Shown here piece after piece: positions 17,857 through 35,575 of a stretch of DNA of 52,701 nt. The first letter of the stretch is position 1. Each line of letters begins with the position of its first letter. Source of the DNA: Pseudomonadota bacterium (lineage in GTDB: Bacteria > Pseudomonadota > Gammaproteobacteria > Ga0077536); assembly GCA_043782755.1 (NCBI GenBank), contig JAYWAC010000001.1, forward strand, positions 1 to 52,701. Direction: 5' to 3'. The notes beneath the pieces are model-generated. The model saw only the letters and a program-made list of their open reading frames with translations. It was not told where the DNA came from and ran no database searches. The translations under genes were made by a program, and so were the position numbers.

Positions 17857-18258
17857 TCAGCGCCGCACTTTGAAGATTTCGTCGACTTCCACTTGCAGGG
17901 TTGCGACCAGTCCATTGGTGTGGTGAGCCATGCCGATCACCGCCAGCAGCTCGGCGTATTGCGCCTCGCTCATACCCTTGGCGCGCGCCGCCGCAGTGTG
18001 GGAGTGAACGCAGTACTCACAGGCATTGGCGACCGACACCGCGATGTAGATCAGCTCCTTGGTCAGCGGGTCGAGCGCGCCTGGCGCCATCACTGCCTTG
18101 GCGCTTTCCCAGGTGCGCTTGAGTTGCGCCGGGTTGTGCGCGAGCGCTTTCCAGAAGTTGTTGATGAAATCGGTCTTGCGCGTCACGCGGATGTCGTCGT
18201 AGACGGCGCGCACAGCGGCATCGGCGTCGGCGTATTCGATCAGATGGACGGTGGTCAT
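17857..18258 (-). CDS. carboxymuconolactone decarboxylase (AhpD-like) family protein
   Basis: 133 aa with the CxxC-type motif ACEYCVHSH, typical of the CMD/AhpD fold. Confidence 0.8.
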   Translation of the reverse strand: MTTVHLIEYADADAAVRAVYDDIRVTRKTDFINNFWKALAHNPAQLKRTWESAKAVMAPGALDPLTKELIYIAVSVANACEYCVHSHTAAARAKGMSEAQYAELLAVIGMAHHTNGLVATLQVEVDEIFKVRR

Positions 18259-18291
18259 GGTGTGGCCCTTCGATTTGCAGGTTCAGGCCCG

Positions 18292-19371: not shown

Positions 19372-19405
19372 GAAAAGGCTCGTGTGGTCTTGGATTGATA
19401 GGCGG

Positions 19406-20344: not shown

Positions 20345-20353
20345 GGTCTGACC

Positions 20354-21688: not shown

Positions 21689-21719
21689 CGACCTCTCCCA
21701 GGGTGAGCGAAGTGTGGCT

Positions 21720-22721
21720 TTAGATCAGCAGTTCAGCGAGTGCTTGGTCGACGAAGGCATTGTCCGCCGCGTCGATGCCAAAGCCCGCGCCATGGCCCCA
21801 CTTCGATGGGATGGGACGCAATTCGGCATGCGGCATGCGCGCGACTTCATAGGCGTTATCGGGCACACGAAAGTACAGATCCGTTTCGCCGGGCATCACG
21901 ATCGCGCGACATTTAATGCCCTGCAAGGCCGCATCGAAGTCACCTTGATAGCGCGGGTTGGCGCTGATATCGCCGGCCATCCAGGTGCGCGCCATGGCGA
22001 TCAGATCGTTGGCATCGTTGGCGAGGAAGTAGCGCTGGGTGAATTTCACCACGTCGTCGCGACTGGCGAGACCGAGTTGGGTATAGAGTCGTTCACGGAA
22101 GAAGTCCTGGGAGAACAACCAGGCCGCATAGACATGACCAAAGGCCAGCACGCCGCGTAGCGGCTGGCTCTCATACCAGCCGTCCTTGAAAGCGGGATCG
22201 AGCTTGAGTGCATTGACCGCGCTCTCGACAAACACATAGTTATGGGCGGCGGTGCGCGCCGCGCCGCAGATAGGCGCGATGGCGTCGACCATCTCGGCGA
22301 ACAGTGCGCCCCATTGGAAAGACTGCTGGGCACCCATGGAAAAGCCCGTTACCAGCCGGATGCGTTTCACGCCCAGGTGTTCGGTCAACAGACGATGCTG
22401 GCACATGACGTTGTCGTAGACGGTGGTGAGCGGAAAGCCGCCTCGGCCGTAGGGCGCCGAGGTGTTGCTGGGCGAGGTCGAACAACCGTTGCCGAGCATA
22501 TTCGGAATGACCACGAAGTAGCGGCTGGTATCGATGACACGACCGGGCGCGACCATGAATTCCGTCTCACTGTGTCGACCACCGTAGAAGGTTGGAATGA
22601 CCACCACGTTGTCGGCTGCGGGCGCGAGCTTGCCGAAGGTCTTGTAGGCCAGCTTCACGTCGAGCGTGTAGCCGCTCTGGGTGGCGAAGCCCGGAATCTC
22701 GTAGGTCTGCAAATCTGACAT
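21720..22721 (-). CDS. alpha/beta hydrolase, homoserine O-acetyltransferase (MetX)-like
   Basis: Nucleophile elbow GFSMGA. The overall MetX-like layout has C-terminal ...GHGAG (recall). Confidence 0.7.
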   Translation of the reverse strand: MSDLQTYEIPGFATQSGYTLDVKLAYKTFGKLAPAADNVVVIPTFYGGRHSETEFMVAPGRVIDTSRYFVVIPNMLGNGCSTSPSNTSAPYGRGGFPLTTVYDNVMCQHRLLTEHLGVKRIRLVTGFSMGAQQSFQWGALFAEMVDAIAPICGAARTAAHNYVFVESAVNALKLDPAFKDGWYESQPLRGVLAFGHVYAAWLFSQDFFRERLYTQLGLASRDDVVKFTQRYFLANDANDLIAMARTWMAGDISANPRYQGDFDAALQGIKCRAIVMPGETDLYFRVPDNAYEVARMPHAELRPIPSKWGHGAGFGIDAADNAFVDQALAELLI

Positions 22722-22997: not shown

Positions 22998-23996
22998 GTG
23001 AGCGGACAATCAGCACTCATCGTTGGTGGCGGCGCGGTCGGCGTCGATTTTCACCTGCCGCGCCTGTTCACGCACTGTGGTATGGCCGAGGTCGCCATCG
23101 TAGAGATCGATGCGCGACGTCGAGCTGCGCTCGCCGCCAAGCTGCGCGGACGCACTGACGTGCAGGTATTACCCAGCGTGCCCGAGGGGCGTGCCTACAA
23201 CATCGCCGTCATTGCCACGCCGCCGCGCTTGCATGCCCCCTATGTCGAGCAGCTCAAGAGCCGCTGCGAAAAGCTCGTCATAGAGAAACCGTTGGCCCAC
23301 GATCTGGTCGCTACCGAGGCGATAGTCGCGAGCCTCGCGCAGGCTTCGACCCAGACCTTCGTCTGTCACATCCGCCGTGCGCTGGGTAGCTTCGTGCTGG
23401 TGCGCGAGCTTCGTCAGCGCGGCACCTTTGGCAGGCTGCTTGAAGTCCGCATGGCCGAGGGCGGGGTGTTCAACTGGAAGGCGGCGTCGATAGGATCTTT
23501 CTCGCGCGAGCTGAACGGTGGCGGCGTGTTACAGGATACCGGTCCCCATGCCCTCGATCTGCTCTGCCAGGTGTTCGATAGCCTGAGCTTGGAACGCGCC
23601 TGGATGGATGCCGATCTGCGACATGGCACGCGCGCTATCGAGGCCAACTGTGTGTTGCGACTGCGGGGCGATGATGAGGTCGGCGTCGAACTCTGCTTAA
23701 GTCGCAATCGTAATTTTTCTAACCAAGCGAGCTTTCGTTTCGAAGGCGCGAGCGTGTCGGTCGATGTGCGCGACAACACCCTGCGCTGGTCTATCGACGA
23801 CCAGCTCGGCATGCAGGGCGTGGCGCTGGGTGGCCCGCTGCAGCGTCTCGAATACCACGAATTGTTTGACGCCTTCTACCAGCGTTTCGTCGCGGCCGGC
23901 GACAATCGTGGCGTGACCGTCAACGATGCACTGCGGGTCGCGCGCCTCATCGATGCAGCCTATCGCCGCAGCGAAGTCTTGGCGGGGGGATTTTGA
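22998..23996 (+). CDS. Gfo/Idh/MocA-family oxidoreductase
   Basis: N-terminal Rossmann motif ALIVGGGAVG plus the EKPLA motif. A GTG start at 22998 is needed to retain the Rossmann motif. Confidence 0.7.
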   Translation: MSGQSALIVGGGAVGVDFHLPRLFTHCGMAEVAIVEIDARRRAALAAKLRGRTDVQVLPSVPEGRAYNIAVIATPPRLHAPYVEQLKSRCEKLVIEKPLAHDLVATEAIVASLAQASTQTFVCHIRRALGSFVLVRELRQRGTFGRLLEVRMAEGGVFNWKAASIGSFSRELNGGGVLQDTGPHALDLLCQVFDSLSLERAWMDADLRHGTRAIEANCVLRLRGDDEVGVELCLSRNRNFSNQASFRFEGASVSVDVRDNTLRWSIDDQLGMQGVALGGPLQRLEYHELFDAFYQRFVAAGDNRGVTVNDALRVARLIDAAYRRSEVLAGGF

Positions 23997-25117
23997 TGAA
24001 GGTCGCGGTCTTCGGCGGCTCGGGATTTCTCGGCTATGACTTCGTGCGACTCGCGCTGCAAGAAGGCGGCTGCGCGCCGGTGGTGTATTCGAGCAGCGCC
24101 AAGAGTCTCTCCAATGTCGCTCGTCACGAAGTCGACATTCGTCTCTATCCGTCGGCCGACCCGGCGGCCGTGGTGCTGGATACGGATGCCGAACTGCTGA
24201 TCAATTTCTCCCATCCTTTTGAGCGGCGCGACGGCATCAGCGGTACCGCACAGGTTGCGCGCTTTGCCGATTTCGTCGGGCGAGCACGCCGGCGCAATCC
24301 GCGTTTACGTCTCATCCATACCAGCTCGATGTCGGTCTACGAACCGTTCGCGGCAGACGTTAAGTTCGAGGAAGGCGCCGCCCTGCATCCGCCGCGCCAT
24401 GATCGTTATGCACGGGAGAAGGTGTGCGCGGAACAGGCTTTGCTGGCGCTGCCCGATGCTGCAAGCTGGCAGCTGCATCTGCGCCCGACGGTGGTCTATG
24501 GGCCATTTTGCGGGGTGTGGACTGATCGCATTTTTGAGGCCTTTACCGCTGGCAACGTCGCCTGCCATTCGCTTGCCGGACGCATCCAGCCGCTGTTGGG
24601 TGCCGATCTGTCGCGCTTCATACTTGCGCGCCTGACGGATTTTCGTGCTGGTATCTACAACGTGCCTGGTCCGGAAATTCTCACTTGGCAGGAATTCTTC
24701 ACCGTCTTTCAGGACATTGCCGCAAGCGGCAAGCTCCAGCTGCACCAGGCTGGGGTCGGCGACAACGAAAGCCGGTGGCGTTTCTATGCGAGCAACCTGC
24801 GCGAGTTGCTGCATGCAGTGCGCAAGGAGCCGGCGTTTGATCGGATGGCTTTGAGCATCGCGCGTCATCTGCCTGAGCACTGCGTGCAGCGCATTCGGCA
24901 AATGCTGTTTGGTCGCGGTGAACGGGCCGCTGTCGTCACTCGGGAGCGCGGGACCAGCGACTATCTGCGACCGTTCTTCGCCGAAGACCGCTTGGTGTCA
25001 GCGGCGCATATCAAGCGCGACTTCCCCGATTTCAAGCCTCGGTCTGTGCACGCGAGCCACGACGAGCTGGGGCGATATTTCCGCTATCGTTTCGGCGACG
25101 ATAGTTTCATCGCTTGA
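23993..25117 (+). CDS. NAD-dependent epimerase/dehydratase (extended SDR)
   Basis: VAVFGGSGFLG and the catalytic YAREK (YxxxK). The start overlaps the upstream stop (ATGA). Confidence 0.8.
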   Translation: MMKVAVFGGSGFLGYDFVRLALQEGGCAPVVYSSSAKSLSNVARHEVDIRLYPSADPAAVVLDTDAELLINFSHPFERRDGISGTAQVARFADFVGRARRRNPRLRLIHTSSMSVYEPFAADVKFEEGAALHPPRHDRYAREKVCAEQALLALPDAASWQLHLRPTVVYGPFCGVWTDRIFEAFTAGNVACHSLAGRIQPLLGADLSRFILARLTDFRAGIYNVPGPEILTWQEFFTVFQDIAASGKLQLHQAGVGDNESRWRFYASNLRELLHAVRKEPAFDRMALSIARHLPEHCVQRIRQMLFGRGERAAVVTRERGTSDYLRPFFAEDRLVSAAHIKRDFPDFKPRSVHASHDELGRYFRYRFGDDSFIA

Positions 25118-25122
25118 GTACG

Positions 25123-25998
25123 ATGTTAGGCACGACCCCGCTGCTGACCCCAGTGACGCGGCCGCTGCGGCGCTTGTTACGCTTCCTCGGCGATGGCTTG
25201 CGGGCGCCCGTCGCTTGTCGTATCTGTGGTGCGGACACTATCAGGCGTGCGGCCTATCTGCGGGTCTTCAATCAATGTCGTGAATGTGATTTTATCTTTG
25301 CCATCACCTATGACGAGCGTAAAAGCCGCGCTGGCATGGGGCTCGATGGCTCCTGGACGGGCTTCGGCGGTGGCGGGCATCGCGAGTATTTCCTGGCCCG
25401 ACAGATGATGCATGAGTTGGGACGCGCGCGCCTCCTGCTCTATGGAACAGGTAACACGCCGACCTTCGCCAAGTTGCGGGAGGAGGGCAGCGACGTGGTC
25501 GGTTGCGATATCAGCCGTGAGGTCGTGGCCACCAAACAGCAGGCTTTCGGCGCGGCGCGATTCATGACGCCGGAACAACTACCGCGTCAGGCGAACTTCG
25601 ACGCGGTCATCGCGGTTGAGGTCATCGAACATCTTCTGGAGCCGGCGACAAGCTTCGCGCAACTGTTTGCACTGTTGCGGCCAGGCGGCATCATCTGCGG
25701 CACCACCAATTGCTGGCCGGGCGGGTCTATCGTCGACGGTAACCGCCCCGGCTATATGAGCGATATTGCCCATGTCGCCTATTGGAGTGAGCGCAATCTG
25801 CGACGGCTTGCCGCGAACTACGGCTACAGCGTCGCCTTGCATGAGATGGTGCGTCCCGGCAGCGTGTTGCCGGACGAACGTTTCGGACAACTGTGGCCAA
25901 ACAAACGGGTTTTCTTCCTGTTCGACGCCGCGTTCCATGGCGAATATTTCGCGAGTCTCAAGCAGCGGCAACCCGTATTGCCGATAGATAGACCGTGA
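25123..25998 (+). CDS. class I SAM-dependent methyltransferase with an N-terminal Cys4 zinc-ribbon
   Basis: CRICG...CRECD forms the ribbon. The motif-I-like segment is LLLYGTGNTPTFAKLREEGSDVVGCDIS. An alternative TTG start at 25114 overlaps the upstream stop. Confidence 0.7.
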   Translation: MLGTTPLLTPVTRPLRRLLRFLGDGLRAPVACRICGADTIRRAAYLRVFNQCRECDFIFAITYDERKSRAGMGLDGSWTGFGGGGHREYFLARQMMHELGRARLLLYGTGNTPTFAKLREEGSDVVGCDISREVVATKQQAFGAARFMTPEQLPRQANFDAVIAVEVIEHLLEPATSFAQLFALLRPGGIICGTTNCWPGGSIVDGNRPGYMSDIAHVAYWSERNLRRLAANYGYSVALHEMVRPGSVLPDERFGQLWPNKRVFFLFDAAFHGEYFASLKQRQPVLPIDRP

Positions 25999-26032
25999 AT
26001 GCGGCTGTGCAAAGTTGCCGTCAGGAGACCAC

Positions 26033-26860
26033 ATGAAACCGCACTATCTCGACGGCCTCGCGTCCTGGGAGCGAGTGTTGTTCAAGTGCGCGCGACTGGC
26101 GGGATGTTCGCGGGCCTTCTATGCCGGCTATCAAGCTTGGCACGGCGACCTGCCGGCGATAACGTCGTTTGCCCGGCGCCACGCTGGCCAGCGCTGTTTC
26201 ATCATGGGCGGCGGTCCGTCATTGAAGCTCATCGACCCGCGGCCGTTACGCCATGAGTTCACCTTCGGCGTGAACGGCATATTCCTCATCTACGACTGGC
26301 TGGGGTTCGAACCCAGCTACTATGTGGTGGAGGATTTTCTGGTCTTCGAGGATCGCTGGCGCGAGATCCACGCAAGGGTGAGGGCATCGACCTGCTTTTT
26401 CCCCACGCATTTCCACTACGCCGACTTCGTGCAAAGCAATCATCACTATTTCCGCGCGATCTATGATTTCGACCCTCGCGCGGGTTTTCCGAATTTCTCA
26501 ACGAACCCAGCCCGCCTGATGTGGATAGGTGGTACCGTCACCTACATCTGTCTGCAGCTCGCCTTGTATATGGGTTTCAGCGAGATCTATTTGATCGGCA
26601 TGGATCACAACTACCAGCGCCCGGCCCATGTGCGTAGCGTCGGCGATGTGTGGACCTCCCACGGCGACGACCCTAACCATTTTCACCCGCAGTACTTCGG
26701 TGCCGGCTATCGCTGGCACGACCCGCAAGTCGATCGCATGGAAACGGCCTATCGCAAGGCACGCGAGGTCTATACCAGCGCTGGCGCGACCGTCTTCAAC
26801 GCCACGGTTGGTGGCCATCTCGAAGTCTTTGAGCGGGTCGACTATGCGAGCCTGTTCTGA
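26033..26860 (+). CDS. DUF115 / MptE-like protein (Maf motility-accessory-factor core), putative glycosyltransferase
   Basis: FIMGGGPSL and GGTVTYICLQLALYMGFSEIYLIGMDHNY match the DUF115 signature I recall. AGGAGA lies 4 nt upstream of the ATG at 26033. Confidence 0.7.
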   Translation: MKPHYLDGLASWERVLFKCARLAGCSRAFYAGYQAWHGDLPAITSFARRHAGQRCFIMGGGPSLKLIDPRPLRHEFTFGVNGIFLIYDWLGFEPSYYVVEDFLVFEDRWREIHARVRASTCFFPTHFHYADFVQSNHHYFRAIYDFDPRAGFPNFSTNPARLMWIGGTVTYICLQLALYMGFSEIYLIGMDHNYQRPAHVRSVGDVWTSHGDDPNHFHPQYFGAGYRWHDPQVDRMETAYRKAREVYTSAGATVFNATVGGHLEVFERVDYASLF

Positions 26861-26869
26861 GGGCCTGAC

Positions 26870-27850
26870 ATGAGCGCATCGACACAGCGCGTCAGTGTGA
26901 TCATCCGTTGTTGTAACGAAGAGCAGCATATCGGTCGCCTGCTGTCGGGCATCCTTGAGCAGACCCTGAGCGAAGTGGAGATCATCGTGGTCGATTCCGG
27001 TTCGACCGACGCGACACTCGCCATCGCCTCTCGTTACCCGGTGCAGATCCGCCACATCGCGCGCGAAAACTTCTCCTTCGGTCGCTCCCTGAATATCGGC
27101 TGCGCGGCGGCGCGCGGCGAATTCCTGGTGATTGCAAGCGCCCATGTCTACCCGATTTACCGTGACTGGCTGGAAAAGTTGATCGCGCCCTTTGACGATG
27201 AACGTGTGGCGGTGGTCTACGGCCAGCAGCGTGGTGACGAGCGCAGCAAGTACGCCGAACAACAGATCTTCGAGAAACTCTATCCGGCCGGCCCGGCGCA
27301 GATCACCGACGGTTATTTCTGCAATAACGCCAATGCCGCCGTGCGTCGTGCGCTATGGCTGGAACTGCCCTATAACGAAGCCCTCACTGGACTCGAGGAT
27401 CTGGCTTGGGCTAAGGCCATCGGTGAGCGTGGACTACGGGTCGCCTATCAGGGCGAGGCGGGGGTCATCCATGTGCACGATGAGCGTTGGCGCCAGGTCT
27501 TGAACCGCTACCAGCGCGAGGCTATCGCCTTGAAGAAGATCGCGCCTGAAGAGCATTTTGGAGTGGGCGATTTCGTCGGCTGCTTCGTCAGCAATGTGCT
27601 GTCCGATCTGCGCCATGCCCATCGTGAAGCGCGTTTGCGCGAGGTCTGGATGGGCGTGCTGCGGTTTCGCTTCATGCAGTTCTGGGGGACTTATCGCGGC
27701 TTTGCGAGTGGCGCTGCGATCCCCGACAATCTCAAGCAGACTTTCTACTATCCCAAAGGCTGGGACCATGAACCGGAGACGTCAGGCAACGAGCACCGTG
27801 CGGCATTGCGTATTCCCTACGCGGCGCTGGGCGATGAAGACGAACCCTGA
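26870..27850 (+). CDS. family 2 glycosyltransferase
   Basis: VSVIIRCCNEEQHI...IIVVDSGSTD is the N-terminal GT-A signature. Confidence 0.8.
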   Translation: MSASTQRVSVIIRCCNEEQHIGRLLSGILEQTLSEVEIIVVDSGSTDATLAIASRYPVQIRHIARENFSFGRSLNIGCAAARGEFLVIASAHVYPIYRDWLEKLIAPFDDERVAVVYGQQRGDERSKYAEQQIFEKLYPAGPAQITDGYFCNNANAAVRRALWLELPYNEALTGLEDLAWAKAIGERGLRVAYQGEAGVIHVHDERWRQVLNRYQREAIALKKIAPEEHFGVGDFVGCFVSNVLSDLRHAHREARLREVWMGVLRFRFMQFWGTYRGFASGAAIPDNLKQTFYYPKGWDHEPETSGNEHRAALRIPYAALGDEDEP

Positions 27851-27892: not shown

Positions 27893-28573
27893 ATGCCTGA
27901 GCGCAAACTGGTCGCGCTACTACCGATGAAGGCCCACAGCGAGCGCCTGCCGGGCAAGAACTTCCGCGTCCTGGGCAGCAAGCCCTTGTACGCCTGGATG
28001 CTCGATACCCTGCTCGCGATCGAAGACATCGATACCGTGGTGATCAACACCGATGCCGTGGCGGCGCTGGGTGACGATGCGCGTCTGCGCCAGCCGCGCG
28101 TGCAGGTGCGCGCGCGCGCTGCGGCACTGTGCGGGGATTTCGTTAGCATGAATCTCATCATCGCCGACGATATCGCGGCGGTGCCGGCCGACAGCTATCT
28201 CATGACCCACGTCACCAATCCCTTCCTGTCGGTTGCCACTATCGGCGCGGCGGTCGCCACCTATGATGCCGGTCTTGCGGCGGGCGACGCCGATTCGCTA
28301 TTCACGGTCACACGCCATCAGACCCGTTTCTATCGCGCCGATGGCAGTGCCATCAACCATGATCCGGCTAATCTCATTCGTACTCAGGATCTGGAACCCT
28401 GGTTCGAGGAAAACTCCTGCATGTATTTGTTCAGCGCCGCGAGTTTCGCCCGCACCCAAGCGCGTATCGGCGACCACCCCATCCTGTTTCCGATCCCCAA
28501 ACGCGAGGCGGTGGATATCGACGAGCAGGATGACTGGAACGTCGCGGCCTTGCTGGCCGCAGGCATGAGCTGA
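27893..28573 (+). CDS. acylneuraminate cytidylyltransferase-family (CTP_transf_3, NeuA/PtmB-like) enzyme
   Basis: VALLPMKAHSERLPGKNFRVLGSKPL corresponds to the N-terminal nucleotide-binding loop of CMP-sugar synthetases. Confidence 0.75.
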   Translation: MPERKLVALLPMKAHSERLPGKNFRVLGSKPLYAWMLDTLLAIEDIDTVVINTDAVAALGDDARLRQPRVQVRARAAALCGDFVSMNLIIADDIAAVPADSYLMTHVTNPFLSVATIGAAVATYDAGLAAGDADSLFTVTRHQTRFYRADGSAINHDPANLIRTQDLEPWFEENSCMYLFSAASFARTQARIGDHPILFPIPKREAVDIDEQDDWNVAALLAAGMS

Positions 28574-28577
28574 AGCG

Positions 28578-29537
28578 ATGCACAGCGTGAGTACCTGTAA
28601 GGTTCTGGTGAGTTGTCCGCCCATGCTCGGCATGCTGGCGGAATTCGATGCTGACTTTGCCGCTTTCGGCATGCACTACGAAGCGCCGCCGCTGGTGCAG
28701 GTGCTGAGCGAAGTGGAATTGATCGCGCGTCTGCCGGACTGCGAGGGCTGGATTATCGGCGACGACCCGGCCACCCGCGCGGTGTTGCAGGCTGGCGCCA
28801 ACGGACGCCTCAAGGCGGCGGTGAAATGGGGTATAGGCATAGACAACGTCGACCTCGCGGCGACGCGCGAACTGGGTCTCGGCTTCGTCAACACGCCCGA
28901 TATGTTCGGCGACGAAGTCGCCGACTATGCGATGGCCTATGTCACCGGCCTCGCCCGTGAGCTGTTCCTGGTCGATCGCGGCGTGCGCGCCGGCCGATGG
29001 CCCAAGCCCGCCGGCATGTCATTGCAGGGCAAGACCGTCGGTCTGATTGGTTACGGCAACATTGGTCGCGCCACGGCACGGCGTCTCGCCGCTGCCGGGC
29101 TCGAAATCCTGGTCTACGATCCGGCGCCGGCCGCGCAGCGCGCGACGCAGGAAGACCGACACGATGCGCGCGTGTGGCCCGAGGGTATCGAGCACTGTGA
29201 CTTCCTGGTCTTCACCTGCGCGCTGACGGCTGCCAATCGCCACATGTTCGATCACCAAGTATTGGCGCGCTGCCGGCCTGGTGTACGCCTGGTGAATGTC
29301 GCGCGCGGTCCGCTGGTTGATACCGAGGCCTTGCTGAGTGGCTTGCGTGAAGGGCGTATCCATGGCGCTGCCCTCGATGTATTCGAAGCCGAACCGCTGG
29401 CGCTGGACCATCCGTTGCGCGGTTTCGAGCGCGTGGTGTTCGGTTCGCACAACGGCTCCAACACCGTCGAAGCAGTGCGTCGTACCAGTCGCAAGGCGAT
29501 CGTCGAACTGGCGCGCCTGCTGGGCCTGAAGTCATGA
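28578..29537 (+). CDS. D-isomer-specific 2-hydroxyacid dehydrogenase (PGDH-like)
   Basis: GKTVGLIGYGNIGRATARRL is the NAD motif. Also LVNVARGPLVD and a C-terminal ...FGSHNGS. Confidence 0.85.
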   Translation: MHSVSTCKVLVSCPPMLGMLAEFDADFAAFGMHYEAPPLVQVLSEVELIARLPDCEGWIIGDDPATRAVLQAGANGRLKAAVKWGIGIDNVDLAATRELGLGFVNTPDMFGDEVADYAMAYVTGLARELFLVDRGVRAGRWPKPAGMSLQGKTVGLIGYGNIGRATARRLAAAGLEILVYDPAPAAQRATQEDRHDARVWPEGIEHCDFLVFTCALTAANRHMFDHQVLARCRPGVRLVNVARGPLVDTEALLSGLREGRIHGAALDVFEAEPLALDHPLRGFERVVFGSHNGSNTVEAVRRTSRKAIVELARLLGLKS

Positions 29538-30283
29538 CGGCCACGCCGGATGGCGTATTGATTACTGGCGCCGGCGGCGGCATAGGTGTCGCGCTGTGCG
29601 CGGCGTTTTCTAGCGCCGGTTATCGCGTCATCGCAACCGATAGCGAGACCCGCGACTGTGACTGTCATGGTTTCGTGACGCTCGATCTCGCGCGGCTGGC
29701 GGATGACGAATCGGTGCGTGAGGTATTCCGCCGAGAAACCGAGACGGCGCTGGCCGGCTTACCGTTGCGGGTGATCGTCAATAACGCGGCGGTGCAGACT
29801 CTCGGCGGGGTTGGCGACCTGACACTGGCGTCGTTCCGCCACAGTCTGGACGTCAATGTCAGTGCGCCTTTGGCGCTGGTCTCGATGTTTCTCGACAGCT
29901 TGAGCGCACAGCGCGGTGTGGTGATCAACATCGGCAGCGTGCACGCACAGCTCACCAAGCCGGGCTTTCTCGCCTACGCCGTCAGCAAGGCGGCGCTGGC
30001 GGGCCTGACGCGCTCGCTGGCGCTTGATCTCGCGCCCCGTGGCATCCGCGTCAACGAGATCAGGCCAGGCGCAACCGCGACACCGATGTTGCTGGCGGGT
30101 TTCGCCGCAGATCCGGCAGCACTCGCCGAGGTGGCCGATATGCAACCCTTGGGCAGGCTCGCGGTACCGGCCGAGATCGCGGCCATGGCGGTGTTTCTTG
30201 CCTCGAGTGAGGCGGCGTTCATGACGGGTGCGGCCATACAGGTCGACGGCGGCATCGCCGCGCGACTGCACGACCCGCACTGA
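29534..30283 (+). CDS. SDR-family oxidoreductase
   Basis: TGAGGGIGVA and YAVSK motifs. The start overlaps the upstream stop (ATGA). Confidence 0.85.
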   Translation: MTATPDGVLITGAGGGIGVALCAAFSSAGYRVIATDSETRDCDCHGFVTLDLARLADDESVREVFRRETETALAGLPLRVIVNNAAVQTLGGVGDLTLASFRHSLDVNVSAPLALVSMFLDSLSAQRGVVINIGSVHAQLTKPGFLAYAVSKAALAGLTRSLALDLAPRGIRVNEIRPGATATPMLLAGFAADPAALAEVADMQPLGRLAVPAEIAAMAVFLASSEAAFMTGAAIQVDGGIAARLHDPH

Positions 30284-30291
30284 AGCGCTAG

Positions 30292-31431
30292 CTAGCTGAG
30301 CAGCAATCGCGCGACGCGATAGCGATCGACTAGCGGCGCCTGGCGGTCGAGGAGCAGGTCGCCGAGTATGACGATGAGGCGTCTCGAATGTGGATTGCCC
30401 ACCACGATTTTTGACCGCTGCAAGGCTTCCCACAGTGTTTCAAAAGCTGCGCGCGCGCGTGGCTCGCGGGCGCTGCTGAGCGCGGCCTTGTGCAAGAGTA
30501 TGAGCAGATAGTAATCGCGCAGTACGCGGCGAGGAGTGAGCGCAGCAGCCAGTGCTGTTGGCCAGTCAGTCATGCAGTTCTCCATCAAGCCAAGCAAGCG
30601 ATGGTAGTCAGCGTTATCAACCGTCGGCAGACGCGCAAGCGTGGTGAAAACACCGGCGCAGGCGGCGAGCAGCGCGCAGGCCGGATCGCTAGGGCATAGT
30701 TGATGACCGCGCAGCAGGGCGTCGAACAGGCGTTCATGCAACAGCACATCATGATGCAGTTGATTGCTGTTGTTGGCTGACATGCTGGTCGCATGCTTGC
30801 GGTAATACACGCAACCGGCTGGGCTGTAGAGCGGCTCCTGACCCTGCGCGAGTACGCGCAGCCAGTAGTCATAGTCTTCGCAGGCGCGCAATTGCGTGTC
30901 GAACAGTCCGGCTGCGTCCGCCACGCTGCGATGCATGAGATAGGCATGCGGTGGCGCGATGTTGAAGTGCATCAGGCGCAGACCGAGATCGGTAGGCGGC
31001 AGCAACCAGCGCGCGCCAAGTTGCGGTGTGCCGTCCGCCTTGGTGGCGCTGAACTGTCGCGTACCACACACGCTCCAGCCCGACGTCGACTGTGCGCGCA
31101 GAAATGCCAATCGCGGCGCGAGACTGGCCGGCGCCAGCAGATCGTCGGCGTCGAGGAATAACAGGGTTTCGCCACTGCTCTGGACGAGGCCGCTATTGCG
31201 TGCCGCCGACAGCCCCTGATTGTGTTGATGGCGGTAACGGACGGTGGGAAAGCCGGCCACGACTGCGGCGGTGTTGTCCTCGGAACCGTCGTCTATCACC
31301 AACAGTTCGAGATCCGGGATGCCCTGCTTGAGCACACTGCGCAGGCAGGCGCCGAGAAAATGCCCGTAGTTATAGGCCGGCACGATCACCGACAGCCGAC
31401 CGCTAACGCCGCTGCCGAGCCCGGCGCTCAT
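30292..31431 (-). CDS. family 2 glycosyltransferase with a ~130-aa C-terminal extension
   Basis: LSVIVPAYNYGHFL, LLVIDDGSEDNT and FLDADD (DxD) motifs. Confidence 0.85.
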   Translation of the reverse strand: MSAGLGSGVSGRLSVIVPAYNYGHFLGACLRSVLKQGIPDLELLVIDDGSEDNTAAVVAGFPTVRYRHQHNQGLSAARNSGLVQSSGETLLFLDADDLLAPASLAPRLAFLRAQSTSGWSVCGTRQFSATKADGTPQLGARWLLPPTDLGLRLMHFNIAPPHAYLMHRSVADAAGLFDTQLRACEDYDYWLRVLAQGQEPLYSPAGCVYYRKHATSMSANNSNQLHHDVLLHERLFDALLRGHQLCPSDPACALLAACAGVFTTLARLPTVDNADYHRLLGLMENCMTDWPTALAAALTPRRVLRDYYLLILLHKAALSSAREPRARAAFETLWEALQRSKIVVGNPHSRRLIVILGDLLLDRQAPLVDRYRVARLLLS

Positions 31432-31456
31432 CGCCAGACGTGTACGCGAGCGCGCT

Positions 31457-33247
31457 TCATACCGTGCTCATCTCGTGAAATTCGGGGTGCTGGGCCTGCA
31501 GTTCTTCAAAGGTTCCTATCGCATCGATGGTGCCAGCTTTAAGGAACACGATGCGATCGCAACGCCGCACGGTCGACAGTCGATGGGCGATCATGAGAAT
31601 GGTGCGGTCGCCCTTGAGTGCCGCTACTGCCTCAATGACGGCCGCTTCAGTGGTGTTGTCCAATGCCGAGGTCGCCTCGTCCATGATCAGGATGTCGGGG
31701 TTGTGATACAGCGCGCGGGCGATGGCGATGCGCTGACGTTCACCACCGGACAGACGGATGCCATGCTCACCAATGGTGGTATCAAGCCCCTGCGGCAGAC
31801 GCGCGAGCAGTGGCCCCAGTTCCGCCGCCGCCGCCGCGCGTTCCACCCCGGCGCGATCGACTGCCGCTGGTTCAAGACCCAGGGCAATGTTCTCGGTGAG
31901 CGTGCCATCGATCAGGAACAAGGCCTGCGGCACGTAGCCGAGATTGGCCTGCCAGGCCGACAGCGTCGCGCGGATATCCTTGCCATCGACACGAATCTGC
32001 CCGTCTACCGGCGCTAGCACGCCGAGGATCAAATCGATGAGTGTGGACTTGCCGGCGCCGCTGGTGCCGACGATGCCGATAGCCTCACCGCGCGCGATGC
32101 GCAGATTGACTGCGTGCAGACTGTCCTGCGTTGCGCCCGGATAGCGATAGCCGAGCTGCTGGATTTCGATGTGCTGGCGAAATGGTAGGGGTGCGCTGAC
32201 GCGTGCCGCGTCGTTGAGCAAAGGCTCAAGCGTACGCAGTCCGTCGTGAACGATATCCAGCGAGGCAGCGTTGTGACGGACTTCGGTGAAGTTATCCATG
32301 AGCCCGCGCACGGCGCCTTTCATGCGTGTCAGCGCGACCGCGAACACGCTGAGGGTGGCGATGATGGCCTGGTTGTCGCTGCCGAGCTGGAACAGCATCA
32401 GGGTCACGCCTAGCAGGCCGAAGATGCCGGTCAGTTCGATGAGTTGTGGAATTGCGCGCTGCACTAGCTGCATGGTGCGTTGAATACGGAACACGTTGAC
32501 CAGCGCCTCGCGCAGACGCGCCAGGAAATAGTCGGTGCGTCCGAGCACGATGATTTCCTTCACGCCGCCCAAGCCTTCGGTGACACTGCGAATGACCATG
32601 CCGCGATGCGCTTGGGCTTCGACACCGAGGCGTTTGACGCGGTTCTGCAGCAGGGTCGCGATGCCGATACCGCCGCCGAGGAAGCCGGCCAGCCACACCA
32701 GTACGCGTAGATCGAGGATCGCGACCAGCACACCGCTGATGCCGAGCAGGATGAAGATATTGCTGATGAACTCGACCATCGGCATCAACACCCGCACCGA
32801 CAGCTGTTGACACTCCTGATTGATATTGCGTTGCAGTTCCGAAGAGTTGTTGCGCAGATGAAAAATATAGGGTGCGCGCAGATAGGCGGTGAACAGGCGG
32901 GTGCTGAGTTTCAAGGCGCGGGTCTGCGCGAAGCGTGCCTTCCAGTAGGCGAGGAACACCACATAAGCAGTCTTGAAGCCATACAAGCCAAACATCGCCA
33001 CGCCGCCCCATACCAACAGATGTTCGCGACTCAGCCACTGGCGCCAATAGGGCGACAAGGCCTCGCGCAGCACGGGGTTGTCGATCAGTTTCTCGGGATA
33101 GGCGAGCACGGTGATGTAGAGCGGTACGACGGCGACGCCGGCCATTTCCAGCATCGCCTCGCACAGCATGAGTAAGACCAGCAGCATGAGACTGCGCCTT
33201 TCGGCGCCGCTCAAGAGATCGATGAGCTTGGTCAGACTGTGCCACAT
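31457..33247 (-). CDS. ABC exporter, fused permease-ATPase (MsbA/PglK-like architecture)
   Basis: 6-TM N-domain. Walker A GTSGAGKST, signature LSGGERQR, Walker B ILIMDEATSALD. Confidence 0.85.
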   Translation of the reverse strand: MWHSLTKLIDLLSGAERRSLMLLVLLMLCEAMLEMAGVAVVPLYITVLAYPEKLIDNPVLREALSPYWRQWLSREHLLVWGGVAMFGLYGFKTAYVVFLAYWKARFAQTRALKLSTRLFTAYLRAPYIFHLRNNSSELQRNINQECQQLSVRVLMPMVEFISNIFILLGISGVLVAILDLRVLVWLAGFLGGGIGIATLLQNRVKRLGVEAQAHRGMVIRSVTEGLGGVKEIIVLGRTDYFLARLREALVNVFRIQRTMQLVQRAIPQLIELTGIFGLLGVTLMLFQLGSDNQAIIATLSVFAVALTRMKGAVRGLMDNFTEVRHNAASLDIVHDGLRTLEPLLNDAARVSAPLPFRQHIEIQQLGYRYPGATQDSLHAVNLRIARGEAIGIVGTSGAGKSTLIDLILGVLAPVDGQIRVDGKDIRATLSAWQANLGYVPQALFLIDGTLTENIALGLEPAAVDRAGVERAAAAAELGPLLARLPQGLDTTIGEHGIRLSGGERQRIAIARALYHNPDILIMDEATSALDNTTEAAVIEAVAALKGDRTILMIAHRLSTVRRCDRIVFLKAGTIDAIGTFEELQAQHPEFHEMSTV

Positions 33248-33273
33248 ACGTCAATTCTCGCAGCGATAGCGAT

Positions 33274-34386
33274 TCATTGCGTCACACCGTGCAGCACCGC
33301 TTCGAGATGGGCGGCCTGGGTGGCCCAGTCGGGCGGCGCGAGGGTGCTCGGTGTCGGCGTGGCCAGTTGCGCGCTGAGGCAGTGGCGCAGACTGTCGATG
33401 TCATCGACCTCGTACAGGCTGTTGGCTGGTGTTGCTAGCAGCTTGCTCAATGCGCCGACCTTGGCCGCCACCACCGGCGTGCGGCAGGCAATGATCTCAT
33501 AGGCCTTCTGCGGGAAGGCATAGCGCCCAAAGGCGGTGTCGCGCATGCAGATCACGGCGACATCGAGCGCGCTGAATAGATCGGGCATGCGCGCATGAGG
33601 CAGTTCGCCAAGATGGATCACGCCCGGCGCATTTGGCAAAGGCTCGGCGCCCTGGCGGCTGCCCGCCAGCACCAGGTGAAGATTATCGTCGCGCGCGCGC
33701 AATTGTTCATAGGCACGATACAAGGTCGCGATGCCACGCGAGGCATCGAGCGCGCCGGCGGTACCGATCAAGCGTCCATCCGCCGGCAGGCCCAGTCGTA
33801 CACGGCTGGTGGCGCGATCGCGCGGATGGAACAGTTCGTGGTTGATGGTGCTCACGAGCGTGCTGACCCGTGCGCGCGGCGTGTGGCGCGCGGCCACCAT
33901 TTCGCATAGTGCTTCGCTGACGCAGGTCACGGCATCGGCGTCGGCCAGCGCGCGGCGGTAGGCGCTGGTCAGGCCGGGCAGTCGCGACAGACCAAAGCTT
34001 TCATAATTATCGAACAGGTCGACAACAAAGGGCAGCCCGGCGCGGCGCGCGAAATGGTGGGTCACGACGACATGGGGACTGTCGGAACCGCCGAGCATCA
34101 CCGTCGGTGCGAAATCTTCAATCGCCGCCTTGACCATGCGCCGATAGCGCAATAGCCCCGGCAATAGCAGTGGCCCCAGATCACAGGACTGCCAGTGCAG
34201 GCGGCCTGCGCCGAGGGCATCTTCGCGCGCGAAGGGCGGCGCTACGCCGCGATAGTTGAGACAGAGGCCGAGTACCTCGTGCCCGCGCAGCGCCAGTTGC
34301 CGTGGCAATTCGTAGAGCCGCGCATAGCGATCGACGATGACGTCCTGGCGCATGTAGCGACGCTTGAACAGACACAGGATGCGCAT
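33274..34386 (-). CDS. GT-B glycosyltransferase (family 4/1-like)
   Basis: MRILCLFKRRY... N-terminus and a C-terminal ...FPQKAYEIIACRTPVVAAKVGAL segment typical of GT4 (E-x7-E region). Confidence 0.7.
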   Translation of the reverse strand: MRILCLFKRRYMRQDVIVDRYARLYELPRQLALRGHEVLGLCLNYRGVAPPFAREDALGAGRLHWQSCDLGPLLLPGLLRYRRMVKAAIEDFAPTVMLGGSDSPHVVVTHHFARRAGLPFVVDLFDNYESFGLSRLPGLTSAYRRALADADAVTCVSEALCEMVAARHTPRARVSTLVSTINHELFHPRDRATSRVRLGLPADGRLIGTAGALDASRGIATLYRAYEQLRARDDNLHLVLAGSRQGAEPLPNAPGVIHLGELPHARMPDLFSALDVAVICMRDTAFGRYAFPQKAYEIIACRTPVVAAKVGALSKLLATPANSLYEVDDIDSLRHCLSAQLATPTPSTLAPPDWATQAAHLEAVLHGVTQ

Positions 34387-34447
34387 GATTCAGCAGCTAC
34401 TCCCGTCAGGCTGGTGCGGACCCTGCGCCGTGCGATTGGCGTGCTGC

Positions 34448-35575
34448 TCAGGCCTCGAGACTGCTGTATTCATCGTCCAGCCCAGTGATGTCACGCGCGG
34501 TCTTCAAGGCCGCCGCCACCACCTGGTCCATGTTGTAGTAACGGTACTGGGCGAGGCGACCGACGAACACCACGTGTTGCTCGGCGCGCGCCATGGCCTT
34601 GTAGCGTTGATAACGCGCTTCGTTGGCCGGATTCGGAATCGGATAATAGGGCTCGCCTGCGGCGCGCGGGATCTCCTTCACTATCGAAGTGCCGGCCACG
34701 TTCTGACCGGTGAGGTATTTGAATTCGGTGATACGGGTGTAGTCATGGTCGTTCGGAAAATTCACCGTGCCGGTGTGCTGGTAGCGCGGCTGGTGGTGAT
34801 GTTCATGACGGAATTCTAGTGAGCGATAGGGCAGGGCACCGTGGCAATAATTGAAATAGGCATCAATAGGGCCGCTGAAGACGGTCAGCCTGGCCAGCAG
34901 TCGCTCGCGTACCGCGAAATAGTCGACGCCGGTCTCGACGGTGATGTGCGGATGAGCGAGCAGCCGCGTGAACATCGCGCTGTAGCCCTGCATCGGCATG
35001 GCCTGGTGACTGTCGGTAAAATAACGATCGTCATCGTTGCTGCGCGTCGGTATGCGGGAGGCGACACTGGCGGCGAGTTGATGGAGTTCCAGGCCCCACT
35101 GCTTGCGCGTATAGCCGCGAAAGAATTTGTCACACAGATCAGCGCCGACGCTGGCCAGTACCGCGTCCTCGCTGGTCTTGATCGTCGTGCGTTGCTCGCG
35201 CACGCCCGCCAAATAGTCGGCGACACCCTGCTCATCGAGTGCGAGACCGTAGAGGCCATTGATGGTGGTGCGGTTGATGGGGATTGGATAGAAGCGACCG
35301 TCGACCAGCGCCTGCACCCGATGTTCATAGGGACGCCAGCTCGTGAAACGCGACAGATAAGCGAACACGCGGCTCGACTGGGTGTGAAAGATGTGCGGGC
35401 CGTAACGATGGATGAGCACACCGTGGGCATCGACTTCATCGTAGGCATTGCCGCCGATGTGCGGGCGCTTGTCTATCACCAGCACGCGACGGCCGGCGCT
35501 GGCGAGACGTTCGGCCACTACCGCGCCGGCAAAGCCGGCACCGACTACCAGCACGTCAAGGGTGGACGAGGACAT
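34448..35575 (-). CDS. glf: UDP-galactopyranose mutase
   Basis: VVGAGFAGAVVAERLA, HIGGNAYD, YGPHIFHT and YRYYNMDQ are characteristic Glf blocks. Confidence 0.9.
   Translation of the reverse strand: MSSSTLDVLVVGAGFAGAVVAERLASAGRRVLVIDKRPHIGGNAYDEVDAHGVLIHRYGPHIFHTQSSRVFAYLSRFTSWRPYEHRVQALVDGRFYPIPINRTTINGLYGLALDEQGVADYLAGVREQRTTIKTSEDAVLASVGADLCDKFFRGYTRKQWGLELHQLAASVASRIPTRSNDDDRYFTDSHQAMPMQGYSAMFTRLLAHPHITVETGVDYFAVRERLLARLTVFSGPIDAYFNYCHGALPYRSLEFRHEHHHQPRYQHTGTVNFPNDHDYTRITEFKYLTGQNVAGTSIVKEIPRAAGEPYYPIPNPANEARYQRYKAMARAEQHVVFVGRLAQYRYYNMDQVVAAALKTARDITGLDDEYSSLEA

Follow-up and report, generated by a model that had tools for sequence, protein, structure and literature searches.

Gene organization of the locus

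The window (the whole 52.7-kb stretch of DNA that was analysed) carries three consecutive genes that encode a cytidylyltransferase, a D-isomer-specific 2-hydroxyacid dehydrogenase (2HADH) and a classical SDR. Genes for a GT2-family glycosyltransferase, a stand-alone DUF115/MptE-like protein and a class I SAM methyltransferase lie upstream on the same strand (Table 1). The three genes are real, and the coordinates and spacing given for them in the original prediction were re-found in the sequence. The stop codon TGA of the cytidylyltransferase (28571–28573) is followed by AGCG and then by the ATG of the 2HADH at 28578, a gap of 4 nt, and the 2HADH and SDR genes overlap by the four nucleotides ATGA at 29534–29537. 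A Shine-Dalgarno-like run, AAGGGGGAG, is present 5′ of the cytidylyltransferase start at 27893.

Table 1 Features of the locus and the domain matches of their products
Feature	Position	Strand	Size and matches
Gfo/Idh/MocA oxidoreductase	22998..23996	+	Pfam
Epimerase-like protein	23993..25117	+	Pfam
Class I SAM methyltransferase	25114..25998	+	Methyltransf_23, Pfam 57 bits
Stand-alone DUF115/MptE-like protein	26015..26860	+	281 aa; PF01973 42.2 bits vs cut-off 34.6
GT2-family GT-A glycosyltransferase	26870..27850	+	326 aa; Pfam 93 bits
Cytidylyltransferase (CTP_transf_3)	27893..28573	+	226 aa; Pfam CTP_transf_3 (PF02348) 57 bits vs cut-off 22.6
D-isomer-specific 2-hydroxyacid dehydrogenase (2HADH), NAD-type	28578..29537	+	319 aa; 2-Hacid_dh_C 168 bits, 2-Hacid_dh 53 bits
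Classical SDR, NAD-type	29534..30283	+	249 aa; adh_short_C2 154 bits

The genes are part of a glycan island of 12.6 kb that adjoins fliD and fliC in this organism, so the target of the sugar may be flagellin or a lipid-linked oligosaccharide. Composition gives no support for the island as a recent transfer, as GC is uniform (0.60–0.64) over the window. The SAM methyltransferase probably tailors the sugar. The Gfo/Idh/MocA and epimerase-like proteins have counterparts of 46–78% identity in five related loci (L006–L009 and L017), and their genes are co-conserved with the others in gammaproteobacterial relatives only.

Conservation of the cassette

Neighbors of the cytidylyltransferase gene were counted by tblastn in 80 related loci, which span Pseudomonadota, Verrucomicrobiota, Cyanobacteria, Planctomycetota, Nitrospirota, Gemmatimonadota and Bacteroidota. 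Within 6 kb, a 2HADH is found in 70 of the loci, a GT2 in 68 (usually directly upstream of the cytidylyltransferase), an SDR in 50 and a DUF115 protein in 36. Dozens of unrelated genomes share this gene order, which argues against chance juxtaposition. It had been proposed that the triad in itself forms the functional unit; this has to be revised, since the GT2 is linked as tightly as the 2HADH and the SDR is the least constant of the three. The unit is a larger cassette of four to five genes, with GT2, cytidylyltransferase, 2HADH and SDR, often joined by a DUF115 protein, a lactonase and a methyltransferase. FkbM methyltransferases lie inside the cassette in 19 of the 80 loci and fill the methyltransferase role in other phyla. 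In most phyla other than that of the window the cassette is found in Wzx/Wzy-type polysaccharide loci, and its hosts need not be flagellated. Our literature searches found no published description of it.

Gene fusions tie the members together further. Fusions of GT2 and cytidylyltransferase make up 56 protein clusters, and one cluster (P0177) fuses the cytidylyltransferase to the 2HADH; a search for long 2HADH fusions (at least 560 aa) found none. The 478-aa cytidylyltransferase P0122 was set aside as a fusion, as its N-terminal extension has no similarity and probably reflects a mis-called start.

A hydrolase of one of three unrelated types lies in the operon in 33 of the 80 loci (UlaG-like MBL in 21, SGL in 10 and cyclase-type in 2). 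No locus has two of them, against an expectation of about 2.6 co-occurrences; the statistics for mutual exclusion are weak, and the loci are related by phylogeny. Neither an SMP-30/gluconolactonase nor a UlaG-like MBL hydrolase is encoded in the window itself. No aldolase, synthase or dehydratase was found to recur within 10 kb in the 80 loci.

Substrate-binding residues of the cytidylyltransferase

The cytidylyltransferase has the D-x-D metal site and the phosphate-binding loop with conserved Lys of the CTP_transf_3 family (NeuA/KdsB superfamily). Its N-terminal loop is as had been claimed, LPMKAHSERLPGKN at residues 10–23. The protein belongs to a distinct and highly conserved subfamily, with identities of 55–65% over phyla. 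Invariant in 36 sequences are K13, S16, R18, K22 and N23 toward the N-terminus and, beyond them, GDFVSMN (81–87), H106, RTQD (163–166), N174, Y178, R191 and D208-I-D210. The score against the PseF equivalog TIGR03584 (62.5 bits) does not reach the cut-off of 205.7, and the NCBIfam comparison lists no NeuA, LegF or KdsB equivalog match. Among solved structures the CMP-Kdn synthetase PpNeuA (PDB code 9t4z, E 5.7e-13) is closest.

Alignment with the solved enzymes is informative on the substrate. The Mg site D208-x-D210 aligns with Asp209/Asp211 of the N. meningitidis CMP-sialate synthetase (PMC2901514). At the position of Arg191, PpNeuA has Arg196, its Kdn gatekeeper, which selects a hydroxyl over an N-acetyl substituent (PMC12934254), and the N. 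meningitidis enzyme has Phe192, which lines the N-acetyl pocket together with Phe193 (PMC2901514). The invariant Arg at the gatekeeper position argues that the substrate is probably not N-acylated. The hydrophobic N-acetyl pocket is absent, and the invariant His106 stands in place of the catalytic Gln, which is Gln104 in the N. meningitidis enzyme and Gln98 in KdsB; these two features of CMP-sialate synthetases are missing, as is regular co-occurrence with NeuB (see below). On sequence grounds we predict a CMP-ulosonate synthetase for a non-N-acylated sugar acid.

The two dehydrogenases

The 2HADH has the Pfam domains of its family, an intact catalytic triad (Arg243, Glu272 and His291) and the NAD-binding GxGxxG followed by Y-D181-P; R243, E272, H291 and D181 are conserved in 56 sequences. 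The SDR has the classical motifs TGxxxGxG (T11-G12...G18) and N83-N84-A85-A86, together with D36, S135, Y148 and K152. The marker Asp is present in both enzymes, and we take both to be NAD- rather than NADP-type for this reason.

Neither enzyme can be assigned to a characterized subfamily. The 2HADH falls below all NCBIfam equivalog cut-offs (174.9 vs 454 for its best model, PGDH TIGR01327, and 132.9 vs 492 for GhrB), and it is closest to 3-phosphoglycerate dehydrogenases (1wwk, E 1.7e-49), not to 2-ketoaldonate reductases. CTP_transf_3 enzymes require the hemiketal of an α-keto acid, and the 2HADH is predicted to supply the 2-keto group needed for CMP activation by oxidizing a sugar acid at its 2-OH. 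It would be the sole member of the cassette able to create the α-keto group.

Structures near the SDR include Bacillus glucose 1-dehydrogenases and galactitol dehydrogenase (E ~1e-30 to 1e-34), although glucose 1-dehydrogenases are not the nearest, and the score against the glucose 1-dehydrogenase subfamily NF005559 (159.6 bits) misses the cut-off of 215. The likeness to glucose 1-dehydrogenases appears generic; an aldose 1-dehydrogenase-like first oxidation is the predicted role. A PtmA-like role was rejected, as PtmA acts in a pathway that depends on NeuB and the SDR shows no specific similarity to it. The SDR is absent from about a quarter of the apparently complete loci (the planctomycete versions, for example, consist of GT2, cytidylyltransferase and 2HADH with FkbM), which suggests that the first oxidation is dispensable or is made by another enzyme.

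NeuB and KdsA in the host and in other cassette genomes

The statement of the original prediction that no NeuB is encoded in the 52.7 kb was borne out by a PF03102 search, with zero matches there. The search for neuB and kdsA paralogues was extended, as had been proposed, to the whole host assembly (345 contigs, 4.67 Mb, 93.9% complete), which encodes one NeuB (the single PF03102 match, on contig C344) and one KdsA (on contig C8), both outside the window; a KdsB-like gene lies on contig C93. The C344 NeuB is accompanied by its own fusion of a cytidylyltransferase with a KdsC-like phosphatase and by a TIGR04396 transferase, and is a true Kdn-type module separate from the cassette. Its cytidylyltransferase, which has 33% identity to the window enzyme, retains the canonical Gln and PRRQD, both of which are changed in the window enzyme. 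The proposal that the precursor is made elsewhere in the genome stands in so far as a NeuB is present; however, that NeuB has a cytidylyltransferase and a transferase of its own, and the window enzyme is left unexplained by it.

True NeuB is absent in 23 of 45 cassette genomes, including one complete chromosome (G030); the genomes compared are for the most part MAGs of unstated completeness. Five cassette genomes, two of them from isolates, lack both true NeuB and a KdsA that scores above cut-off: Sphingomonadales EhC05 (G017), Richelia sinica FACHB-800 (G024), G021, G041 and G044.

Candidate transferases

In the GT2 an invariant S90-x-H92 occupies, by alignment, the canonical DXD position, while the GT-A fold and the Pfam match are present. 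His92 may bind a metal, or the donor may be a monophosphate nucleotide sugar. The GT2 moiety of the cytidylyltransferase fusion is 40% identical to the GT2 of the window and keeps S-x-H. The AF2 model (pLDDT 88.8) has PcManGT, WrtF and TarP as nearest folds, and look-alikes in the ESM Atlas carry generic GT2 names only.

For the DUF115 protein a sequence search against the PDB gave nothing meaningful, and a match came from the fold search alone. Foldseek with the AF2 model (pLDDT 90) returned the Maf glycosyltransferase 5MU5 as best PDB match (E 3.7e-7) and, after it, MptE HPPK and sialyltransferases (ST8SiaIII, Cst-I and Cst-II); the alignment covers part of the 632-residue 5MU5, with a TM of 0.25 by target. 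The N- and C-terminal domains that engage flagellin, which bring Maf to a total of ~600–650 aa, are lacking. Conserved are a GGGPS motif (family consensus GNGPS) and D197/H198. A preprint reports the transfer of Kdo and Neu5Ac by Maf enzymes. Judged from the modeled fold, the DUF115 protein is a candidate CMP-sugar-dependent transferase with a sialyltransferase-like fold. Its earlier designation as the user of the CMP-sugar agrees with this fold, but the GT2 could fill the role equally well.

Proposed route and alternatives

The original prediction held that an unusual acidic sugar is made and CMP-activated without a NeuB-type synthase. This reading gains support from the conservation of the cassette over phyla and from the genomes that lack NeuB and, in some cases, KdsA. 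In general terms, we regard it as rather probable that the cassette makes a CMP-activated acidic keto-sugar independently of NeuB and KdsA. That it provides a surface glycan, more precisely, with a non-aminated 2-keto sugar acid, independently of PEP-condensing synthases of the NeuB and KdsA type, we judge to have an even chance.

A specific oxidative route, from aldose through aldonolactone, aldonate and 2-keto-aldonate to the CMP-sugar and its transfer, is advanced here tentatively. The NAD-type SDR would oxidize a free aldose at C1 to the aldonolactone, which would open spontaneously or by the action of an SMP-30/gluconolactonase or a UlaG-like MBL hydrolase. The NAD-type 2HADH would then oxidize the aldonate at C2 to a 2-keto-aldonate, a 2-ulosonic acid that is not 3-deoxy, and the cytidylyltransferase would join CMP to its anomeric 2-OH. 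The GT2, the DUF115 enzyme, or both would transfer the residue, and the methyltransferase would decorate it. Somewhat more doubtful is the full combination, in which a 2-ulosonic acid arises by two NAD-dependent oxidations of an aldose, is activated with CMP by an enzyme with His in place of Gln, and serves a DXD-less GT2 as CMP donor in many phyla. We know of no glycan with a non-deoxy hex-2-ulosonic acid; our literature searches found none with a non-deoxy hexulosonic acid, and they spoke neither for nor against one.

The substrate could instead be a pre-existing 2-keto-3-deoxy sugar acid, derived from KDG/KDPG (Entner-Doudoroff or uronate metabolism) or formed by a pyruvate aldolase (DapA/NanA or HpcH type) encoded elsewhere. 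In that case the role of the two dehydrogenases would be limited to tailoring this acid, such as epimerization through a keto intermediate or oxidation at another position. To our knowledge, the characterized substrates of CTP_transf_3 enzymes are all 3-deoxy. The sugar motifs of CMP-sialate synthetases and the Kdn-type polar pocket of the cytidylyltransferase are compatible with such an acid, as is the dispensability of the SDR in many loci. The neighborhoods speak otherwise: no aldolase or dehydratase recurs in them, and the 2HADH, the most constant neighbor of the cytidylyltransferase and once fused to it, is a better fit to a committed precursor-forming step than to optional tailoring. The lactonase-type hydrolases of the operons would also have no role. 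We consider a 3-deoxy substrate unlikely.

A non-sugar (phospho)hydroxy acid is quite improbable. Here the PGDH-like enzyme would produce or use up a hydroxy or keto acid of C3–C4 size, the product of the cytidylyltransferase would be an acid linked to CMP or CDP, and the fused, DXD-less GT2 would transfer the acid as a substituent; CofC/FbiD in F420 synthesis offers the model for this logic. The best matches of the 2HADH (1wwk and TIGR01327) and a GT2 that has no DXD and is fused to the cytidylyltransferase would suit it. A non-sugar hydroxy acid had been among the substrates originally considered, and has become less likely because the cytidylyltransferase retains the sugar-acid motifs of CMP-sialate synthetases. 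Its pyranose- and carboxylate-binding residues (RxQD, N174/Y178 and the D-x-D metal site) are invariant, and the sugar-lactonase-type hydrolases and the aldose-dehydrogenase-like SDR point to sugar chemistry. We know of no CTP_transf_3 member that uses a non-sugar acid.

Very improbable is a conventional paralogue of NeuA, PseF, LegF or KdsB that is fed by a canonical pathway, uses the product of the C344 NeuB or the C8 KdsA and merely adjoins unrelated dehydrogenases: the Pfam family is the same and the host does encode one enzyme of each kind, but the C344 module is self-contained, a KdsB-like gene is available on C93, the PseF cut-off is far from reached and no KdsB model matches, the window enzyme has diverged from its paralogue in the Gln and PRRQD positions, and orthologues with the same neighbors occur in genomes without NeuB and KdsA.

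The full combination of two oxidations, CMP activation and transfer by a DXD-less GT2 would, if true, define a new class of CMP-sugars, with a hex- or pent-2-ulosonate that is not deoxygenated. It would also bring a new logic to the biosynthesis of ulosonic acids and give GT2 enzymes a new type of donor. The CMP-activated sugars known to us (Kdo, Kdn, and the sialic, legionaminic and pseudaminic acids) all derive from an aldol-type condensation with PEP, and genome mining for sialic-acid-like surface sugars keys on NeuB and KdsA for this reason. If the widespread cassette reaches a CMP-sugar acid independently of these two enzymes, cyanobacteria, verrucomicrobia, planctomycetes, nitrospirae and proteobacteria would have acidic surface sugars of a whole class that such surveys miss. 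In that case the NeuA/KdsB fold would have a wider substrate range, and GT2 enzymes may use CMP donors.

Comparison with known systems

The enzyme families and reactions that the oxidative route needs are those of glucose 1-dehydrogenase, SMP-30 gluconolactonase and the 2-ketogluconate reductases of the 2HADH family (GhrB and KguD). Those enzymes, however, are catabolic and have no link to nucleotide activation or glycosyltransferases; the cassette enzymes fall below all equivalog cut-offs, and the 2HADH of the cassette would work in the direction of oxidation.

The Campylobacter PtmA/PtmB pair resembles the locus in that an SDR-like gene adjoins a CTP_transf_3 gene near flagellin genes. PtmB (LegF, a CMP-legionaminate synthetase) depends on the NeuB-type LegI and on GDP-sugar precursors, whereas the cassette has no dependence on NeuB and the pocket residue of the window enzyme argues against an N-acylated nonulosonate. 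The DUF115 protein shares its core fold and a GNGPS-type motif with Maf (Magnetospirillum, 5MU5) and with the GT42 sialyltransferases of Campylobacter (Cst-I and Cst-II), and the place of the cassette beside fliC and fliD is typical of Maf; at 281 aa it lacks the flanking domains of Maf (~630 aa).

In the CMP-Kdo pathway (KdsD, KdsA, KdsC and KdsB/KpsU), a CTP_transf_3 enzyme activates an α-keto sugar acid with CMP, as is predicted for the cassette, and the S-x-R-L-P-G-K loop at the N-terminus of the window enzyme presumably resembles the KdsB loop. Unlike that pathway, the cassette has no KdsA, KdsC or KdsD, and it is found in genomes that lack KdsA.

The CMP-Kdn pathway consists of Kdn-9-P synthase, Kdn-9-P phosphatase and CMP-Kdn synthetase. 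With this pathway, as found in Bacteroides thetaiotaomicron and Prymnesium parvum (PpNeuA, the closest solved enzyme), the cassette has in common the cytidylyltransferase family, the gatekeeper Arg and, by prediction, a CMP-linked non-aminated acidic sugar as product. It differs in having two NAD-type dehydrogenases in place of a NeuB-type synthase and a HAD phosphatase, and a cytidylyltransferase with His for the catalytic Gln and IRTQD for PRRQD.

Organization of the locus

The open reading frames originally predicted for a cytidylyltransferase, a D-2-hydroxyacid dehydrogenase (2HADH) and an SDR agree exactly, in position and strand, with our ORF check. The sequence confirms the 4-nt gap between the first two genes and the ATGA overlap of the second and third, and the N-terminal loop claimed for the first protein is found as LPMKAHSERLPGKN at residues 10-23. 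The Shine-Dalgarno-like sequence AAGGGGGAG lies upstream of the cytidylyltransferase gene. The absence of NeuB from the window also held in a PF03102 search of the 4.67-Mb assembly. GC content is uniform across the window (0.60-0.64).

Features of the locus and of the NeuB-containing module on contig C344
Feature	Position	Strand	Remark
Alpha/beta hydrolase, 444-aa protein, two class IV aminotransferases	17857-22721	-	divergent from island
Gfo/Idh/MocA oxidoreductase	from 22998	+	triad operon
Epimerase-like protein	from 23993	+	triad operon
Methyltransferase	from 25114	+	triad operon
DUF115/MptE-like protein	from 26015	+	triad operon
GT2	26870-27850	+	triad operon, directly before triad
Cytidylyltransferase	27893-28573	+	CTP_transf_3, 57 bits (Pfam)
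2HADH	28578-29537	+	2-Hacid_dh_C, 168 bits; 2-Hacid_dh, 53 bits (Pfam)
SDR	29534-30283	+	adh_short_C2, 154 bits (Pfam)
Second GT2, PglK/MsbA-like ABC exporter, GT4, UDP-galactopyranose mutase	30292-35575	-	convergent operon
fliD	36569-37948		beyond convergent operon
Flagellin	38563-40038		beyond convergent operon
C344 module, three genes	L005:9911-13924	-	outside window

The ABC half-transporter of the convergent operon scores 278 bits on the PglK model, under its cut-off; a flippase for lipid-linked oligosaccharide is a poor fit to cytoplasmic flagellin glycosylation, and no initiating phosphoglycosyltransferase was seen within the glycan island. In the divergent operon, the 444-aa protein has no Pfam match; this protein, the hydrolase and one aminotransferase are kept beside the island in two relatives (L006/L007).

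A cassette conserved across phyla

The conserved unit is larger than the triad first proposed. One genome per species was searched, and the best 80 of 237 cytidylyltransferase relatives (55-87% identity to the window enzyme) were analysed; they come from Pseudomonadota, Verrucomicrobiota, Cyanobacteria, Planctomycetota, Nitrospirota, Gemmatimonadota and Bacteroidota. Neighbours within 6 kb of the cytidylyltransferase were counted by tblastn with the window proteins and representatives of neighbouring genes, and the counts are lower bounds because many loci lie on incomplete contigs. The 2HADH is present in at least 70 of the 80 loci, the GT2 encoded before the triad in at least 68, the SDR in at least 50 and DUF115 in at least 36, followed by a Wzx-like membrane protein (at least 30), an MBL-fold hydrolase (at least 21), an FkbM methyltransferase (at least 19), SMP-30/gluconolactonase (at least 10) and a cyclase-type hydrolase (at least 2). 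The commonest gene order is GT2, cytidylyltransferase, 2HADH, SDR; the SDR is missing from about a quarter of apparently complete loci. The DUF115 count is probably too low, since a 244-aa protein (cluster c25) encoded about 7 kb downstream of the cassette at L015:16556-17290 and in four other loci, verrucomicrobial/planctomycete, has a sub-threshold MptE-like match (24.7 bits).

In clusters of proteins above 397 aa, the cytidylyltransferase is fused to the GT2 in 56 cases (~550 aa) and to the 2HADH in one; the fused GT2 and 2HADH are 40% and 50% identical to their window counterparts. The gene fliD is also near the cassette in close gammaproteobacterial relatives (L006-L008), and in other relatives the cassette sits within Wzx/Wzy, Bac_transf or exosortase-type polysaccharide loci. 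The cassette is a portable sugar module, not flagella-specific. We found no published description of it in the literature, and database names of its proteins are generic ('acylneuraminate cytidylyltransferase family protein', 'rhamnosyltransferase').

The closest locus, L006 (CAMCBY010000030.1; 86% identity, island genes in the same order, surrounding GC about 62%), bears the title 'MAG: Klebsiella pneumoniae'. Its gene content and the identity of the other close matches, 'Gammaproteobacteria bacterium' MAGs, suggest that this label is wrong.

Probable independence from NeuB and KdsA

The original prediction allowed for a precursor made elsewhere in the genome. Synthases do exist there: PF03102 has one match in the assembly, on C344, and a canonical KdsA (409 bits) lies on C8. 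Three CTP_transf_3 genes are present (C93, C344 and the window), of which the window gene is the weakest against the family model; that on C93 is KdsB-like (175 bits), and the second adjoins the sole NeuB. The C344 module encodes a TIGR04396 'surface carbohydrate biosynthesis protein' (657 aa, 382 bits), a NeuB-family synthase of 295 aa without SAF domain, and a 382-aa protein in which a cytidylyltransferase is joined to a KdsC/YrbI-type HAD phosphatase; the phosphatase part exceeds the TIGR01670 cut-off and reaches 138 bits against the Kdn-9-P phosphatase model. The three genes appear to form a self-contained nonulosonate module of the 9-phosphate (Kdn-like) type, transferase included. Its surroundings (TerC, aldehyde ferredoxin oxidoreductase, amidohydrolases) are unrelated. 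The C344 cytidylyltransferase is only 33% identical to the window enzyme; it retains the canonical Gln of IQATSP and the PRRQD motif, both of which are altered in the window enzyme. As the module carries this cytidylyltransferase of its own, its NeuB can do without the window enzyme and probably does not supply that enzyme's substrate.

NeuB has no match whatever in 17 of 45 cassette genomes, mostly MAGs, and in 6 further ones only weak partial matches, on DAHP/KDO8P-synthase-like genes; the genomes lacking NeuB include G030, a complete 5.7-Mb chromosome. Among the 25 cassette genomes tested for KdsA (cut-off 314 bits), G017, G041 and G044 gave no match, and G021, G024 and G011 gave paralogues only, far under the cut-off (120-132 bits). 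The combined searches leave G017 (Sphingomonadales bacterium EhC05), G024 (Richelia sinica FACHB-800), G021, G041 and G044 with a full cassette and neither synthase (cited loci L036, L049 and L043).

The cassette enzymes

Residues of the cytidylyltransferase were mapped by combining HMMER alignments with a family alignment. Its nearest solved relative, before other NeuA enzymes, is the Kdn-specific CMP-Kdn synthetase PpNeuA of Prymnesium parvum (9t4z, E 5.7e-13). The phosphate loop (K13, R18, K22-N23), RTQD 163-166, N174 and D208-I-D210 are invariant, the last corresponding to Asp209/Asp211, which form the Mg site in N. meningitidis (PMC2901514); Y178 is kept in at least 90%. The catalytic Gln position (Gln104, N. 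meningitidis) is an invariant His106, and in the N-acetyl pocket an equally invariant Arg191 takes the place of the first Phe (Phe192). Arg191 pairs in the alignment with Arg196 of PpNeuA, the gatekeeper residue that selects Kdn over Neu5Ac (PMC12934254). The solved enzymes have nothing equivalent to the invariant GDFVSMN block (81-87), and the PseF equivalog is not reached (62.5 bits, cut-off 205.7). On this evidence the window enzyme is probably an active member of a separate subfamily of CMP-ulosonate synthetases, with a substrate that would not be N-acylated.

The 2HADH is most similar to phosphoglycerate dehydrogenases; Arg243, Glu272 and His291 make up its triad, and Y-D181-P marks it as the NAD-dependent type. 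The SDR has the Ser135-Tyr148-Lys152 triad and the NAD-type Asp36; it reaches no equivalog cut-off, and glucose 1-dehydrogenases and galactitol dehydrogenase are among the solved structures closest to it. The hydrolases encoded inside the operon belong to three unrelated families that never occur together (33 loci with one, none with two), a statistically weak exclusion. Two are lactonase-like: the SMP-30/gluconolactonase match has E 1.7e-86, and the best NCBIfam match of the MBL hydrolase is L-ascorbate-6-phosphate lactonase. In L017 and L078 a small 'putative cyclase'/arylformamidase-like hydrolase (PF04199) lies between GT2 and cytidylyltransferase, the slot of MBL or SMP-30 in other cassettes, and may be a third, non-orthologous enzyme for that step.

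The DUF115 protein was originally predicted to use the CMP-sugar. Its model (pLDDT 90) does have the fold of CMP-dependent transferases, matching best the Magnetospirillum Maf glycosyltransferase (5MU5, E 3.7e-7), then archaeal MptE and the ST8SiaIII, Cst-I, Cst-II and ST6GalNAc2 sialyltransferases, and a GNGPS-type motif is kept; the GT2, however, is more tightly linked and is found fused. The GT2 is modelled with confidence as a GT-A fold (pLDDT 88.8) closest to PcManGT, WrtF and TarP, with an invariant Ser90-x-His92 at the DXD position and an invariant FSFGRSLN block. This GT2 may use a CMP donor, and the DUF115 protein (fold) and the GT2 (linkage, fusions, no diphosphate-binding DXD) are both candidates for the enzyme that uses the CMP-sugar.

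A possible oxidative route

In CTP_transf_3 enzymes (KdsB, NeuA, PseF, LegF) the reacting group is the anomeric hydroxyl of an alpha-keto sugar acid, and of the conserved cassette members it is the 2HADH that could generate an alpha-keto acid. The NAD type of the two dehydrogenases favours the oxidation direction. Together with the lactonase-like hydrolases, these points make an oxidative route from aldose to CMP-sugar the most economical reading. We infer each step: the SDR would convert an aldose to an aldonolactone, a lactonase or spontaneous opening would give the aldonate, the 2HADH would oxidize this to a 2-keto-aldonate, and the cytidylyltransferase would form the CMP-sugar, which the GT2 (fused or adjacent), the DUF115 enzyme or both would transfer, with O-methylation in addition. 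Such a route to a non-deoxy ulosonic acid, combined with a CMP-using GT2, is proposed tentatively. The loci without an SDR, the likeness of the 2HADH to phosphoglycerate dehydrogenases and the weak statistics of hydrolase exclusion count against the route, and we found no glycan in the literature known to contain a 2-keto-aldonate-type sugar.

Somewhat less probable is activation of a pre-existing 2-keto-3-deoxy acid (KDG-type or aldolase product), which the dehydrogenases would merely tailor; no aldolase, synthase or dehydratase is among the recurrent neighbour families of the cassette. Activation of a non-sugar phospho-hydroxy acid in the manner of CofC, with transfer by the DXD-less GT2, is improbable, as the cytidylyltransferase retains sugar-binding motifs and lactonases occur in the cassette. 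An ordinary NeuA or KdsB paralogue supplied by NeuB or KdsA elsewhere is very doubtful despite the synthases on C344 and C8, since the C344 module is self-contained, the window enzyme misses the equivalog cut-off and some carriers lack both synthases. We place the cassette, as a probable new form, among the CMP-ulosonate pathways.
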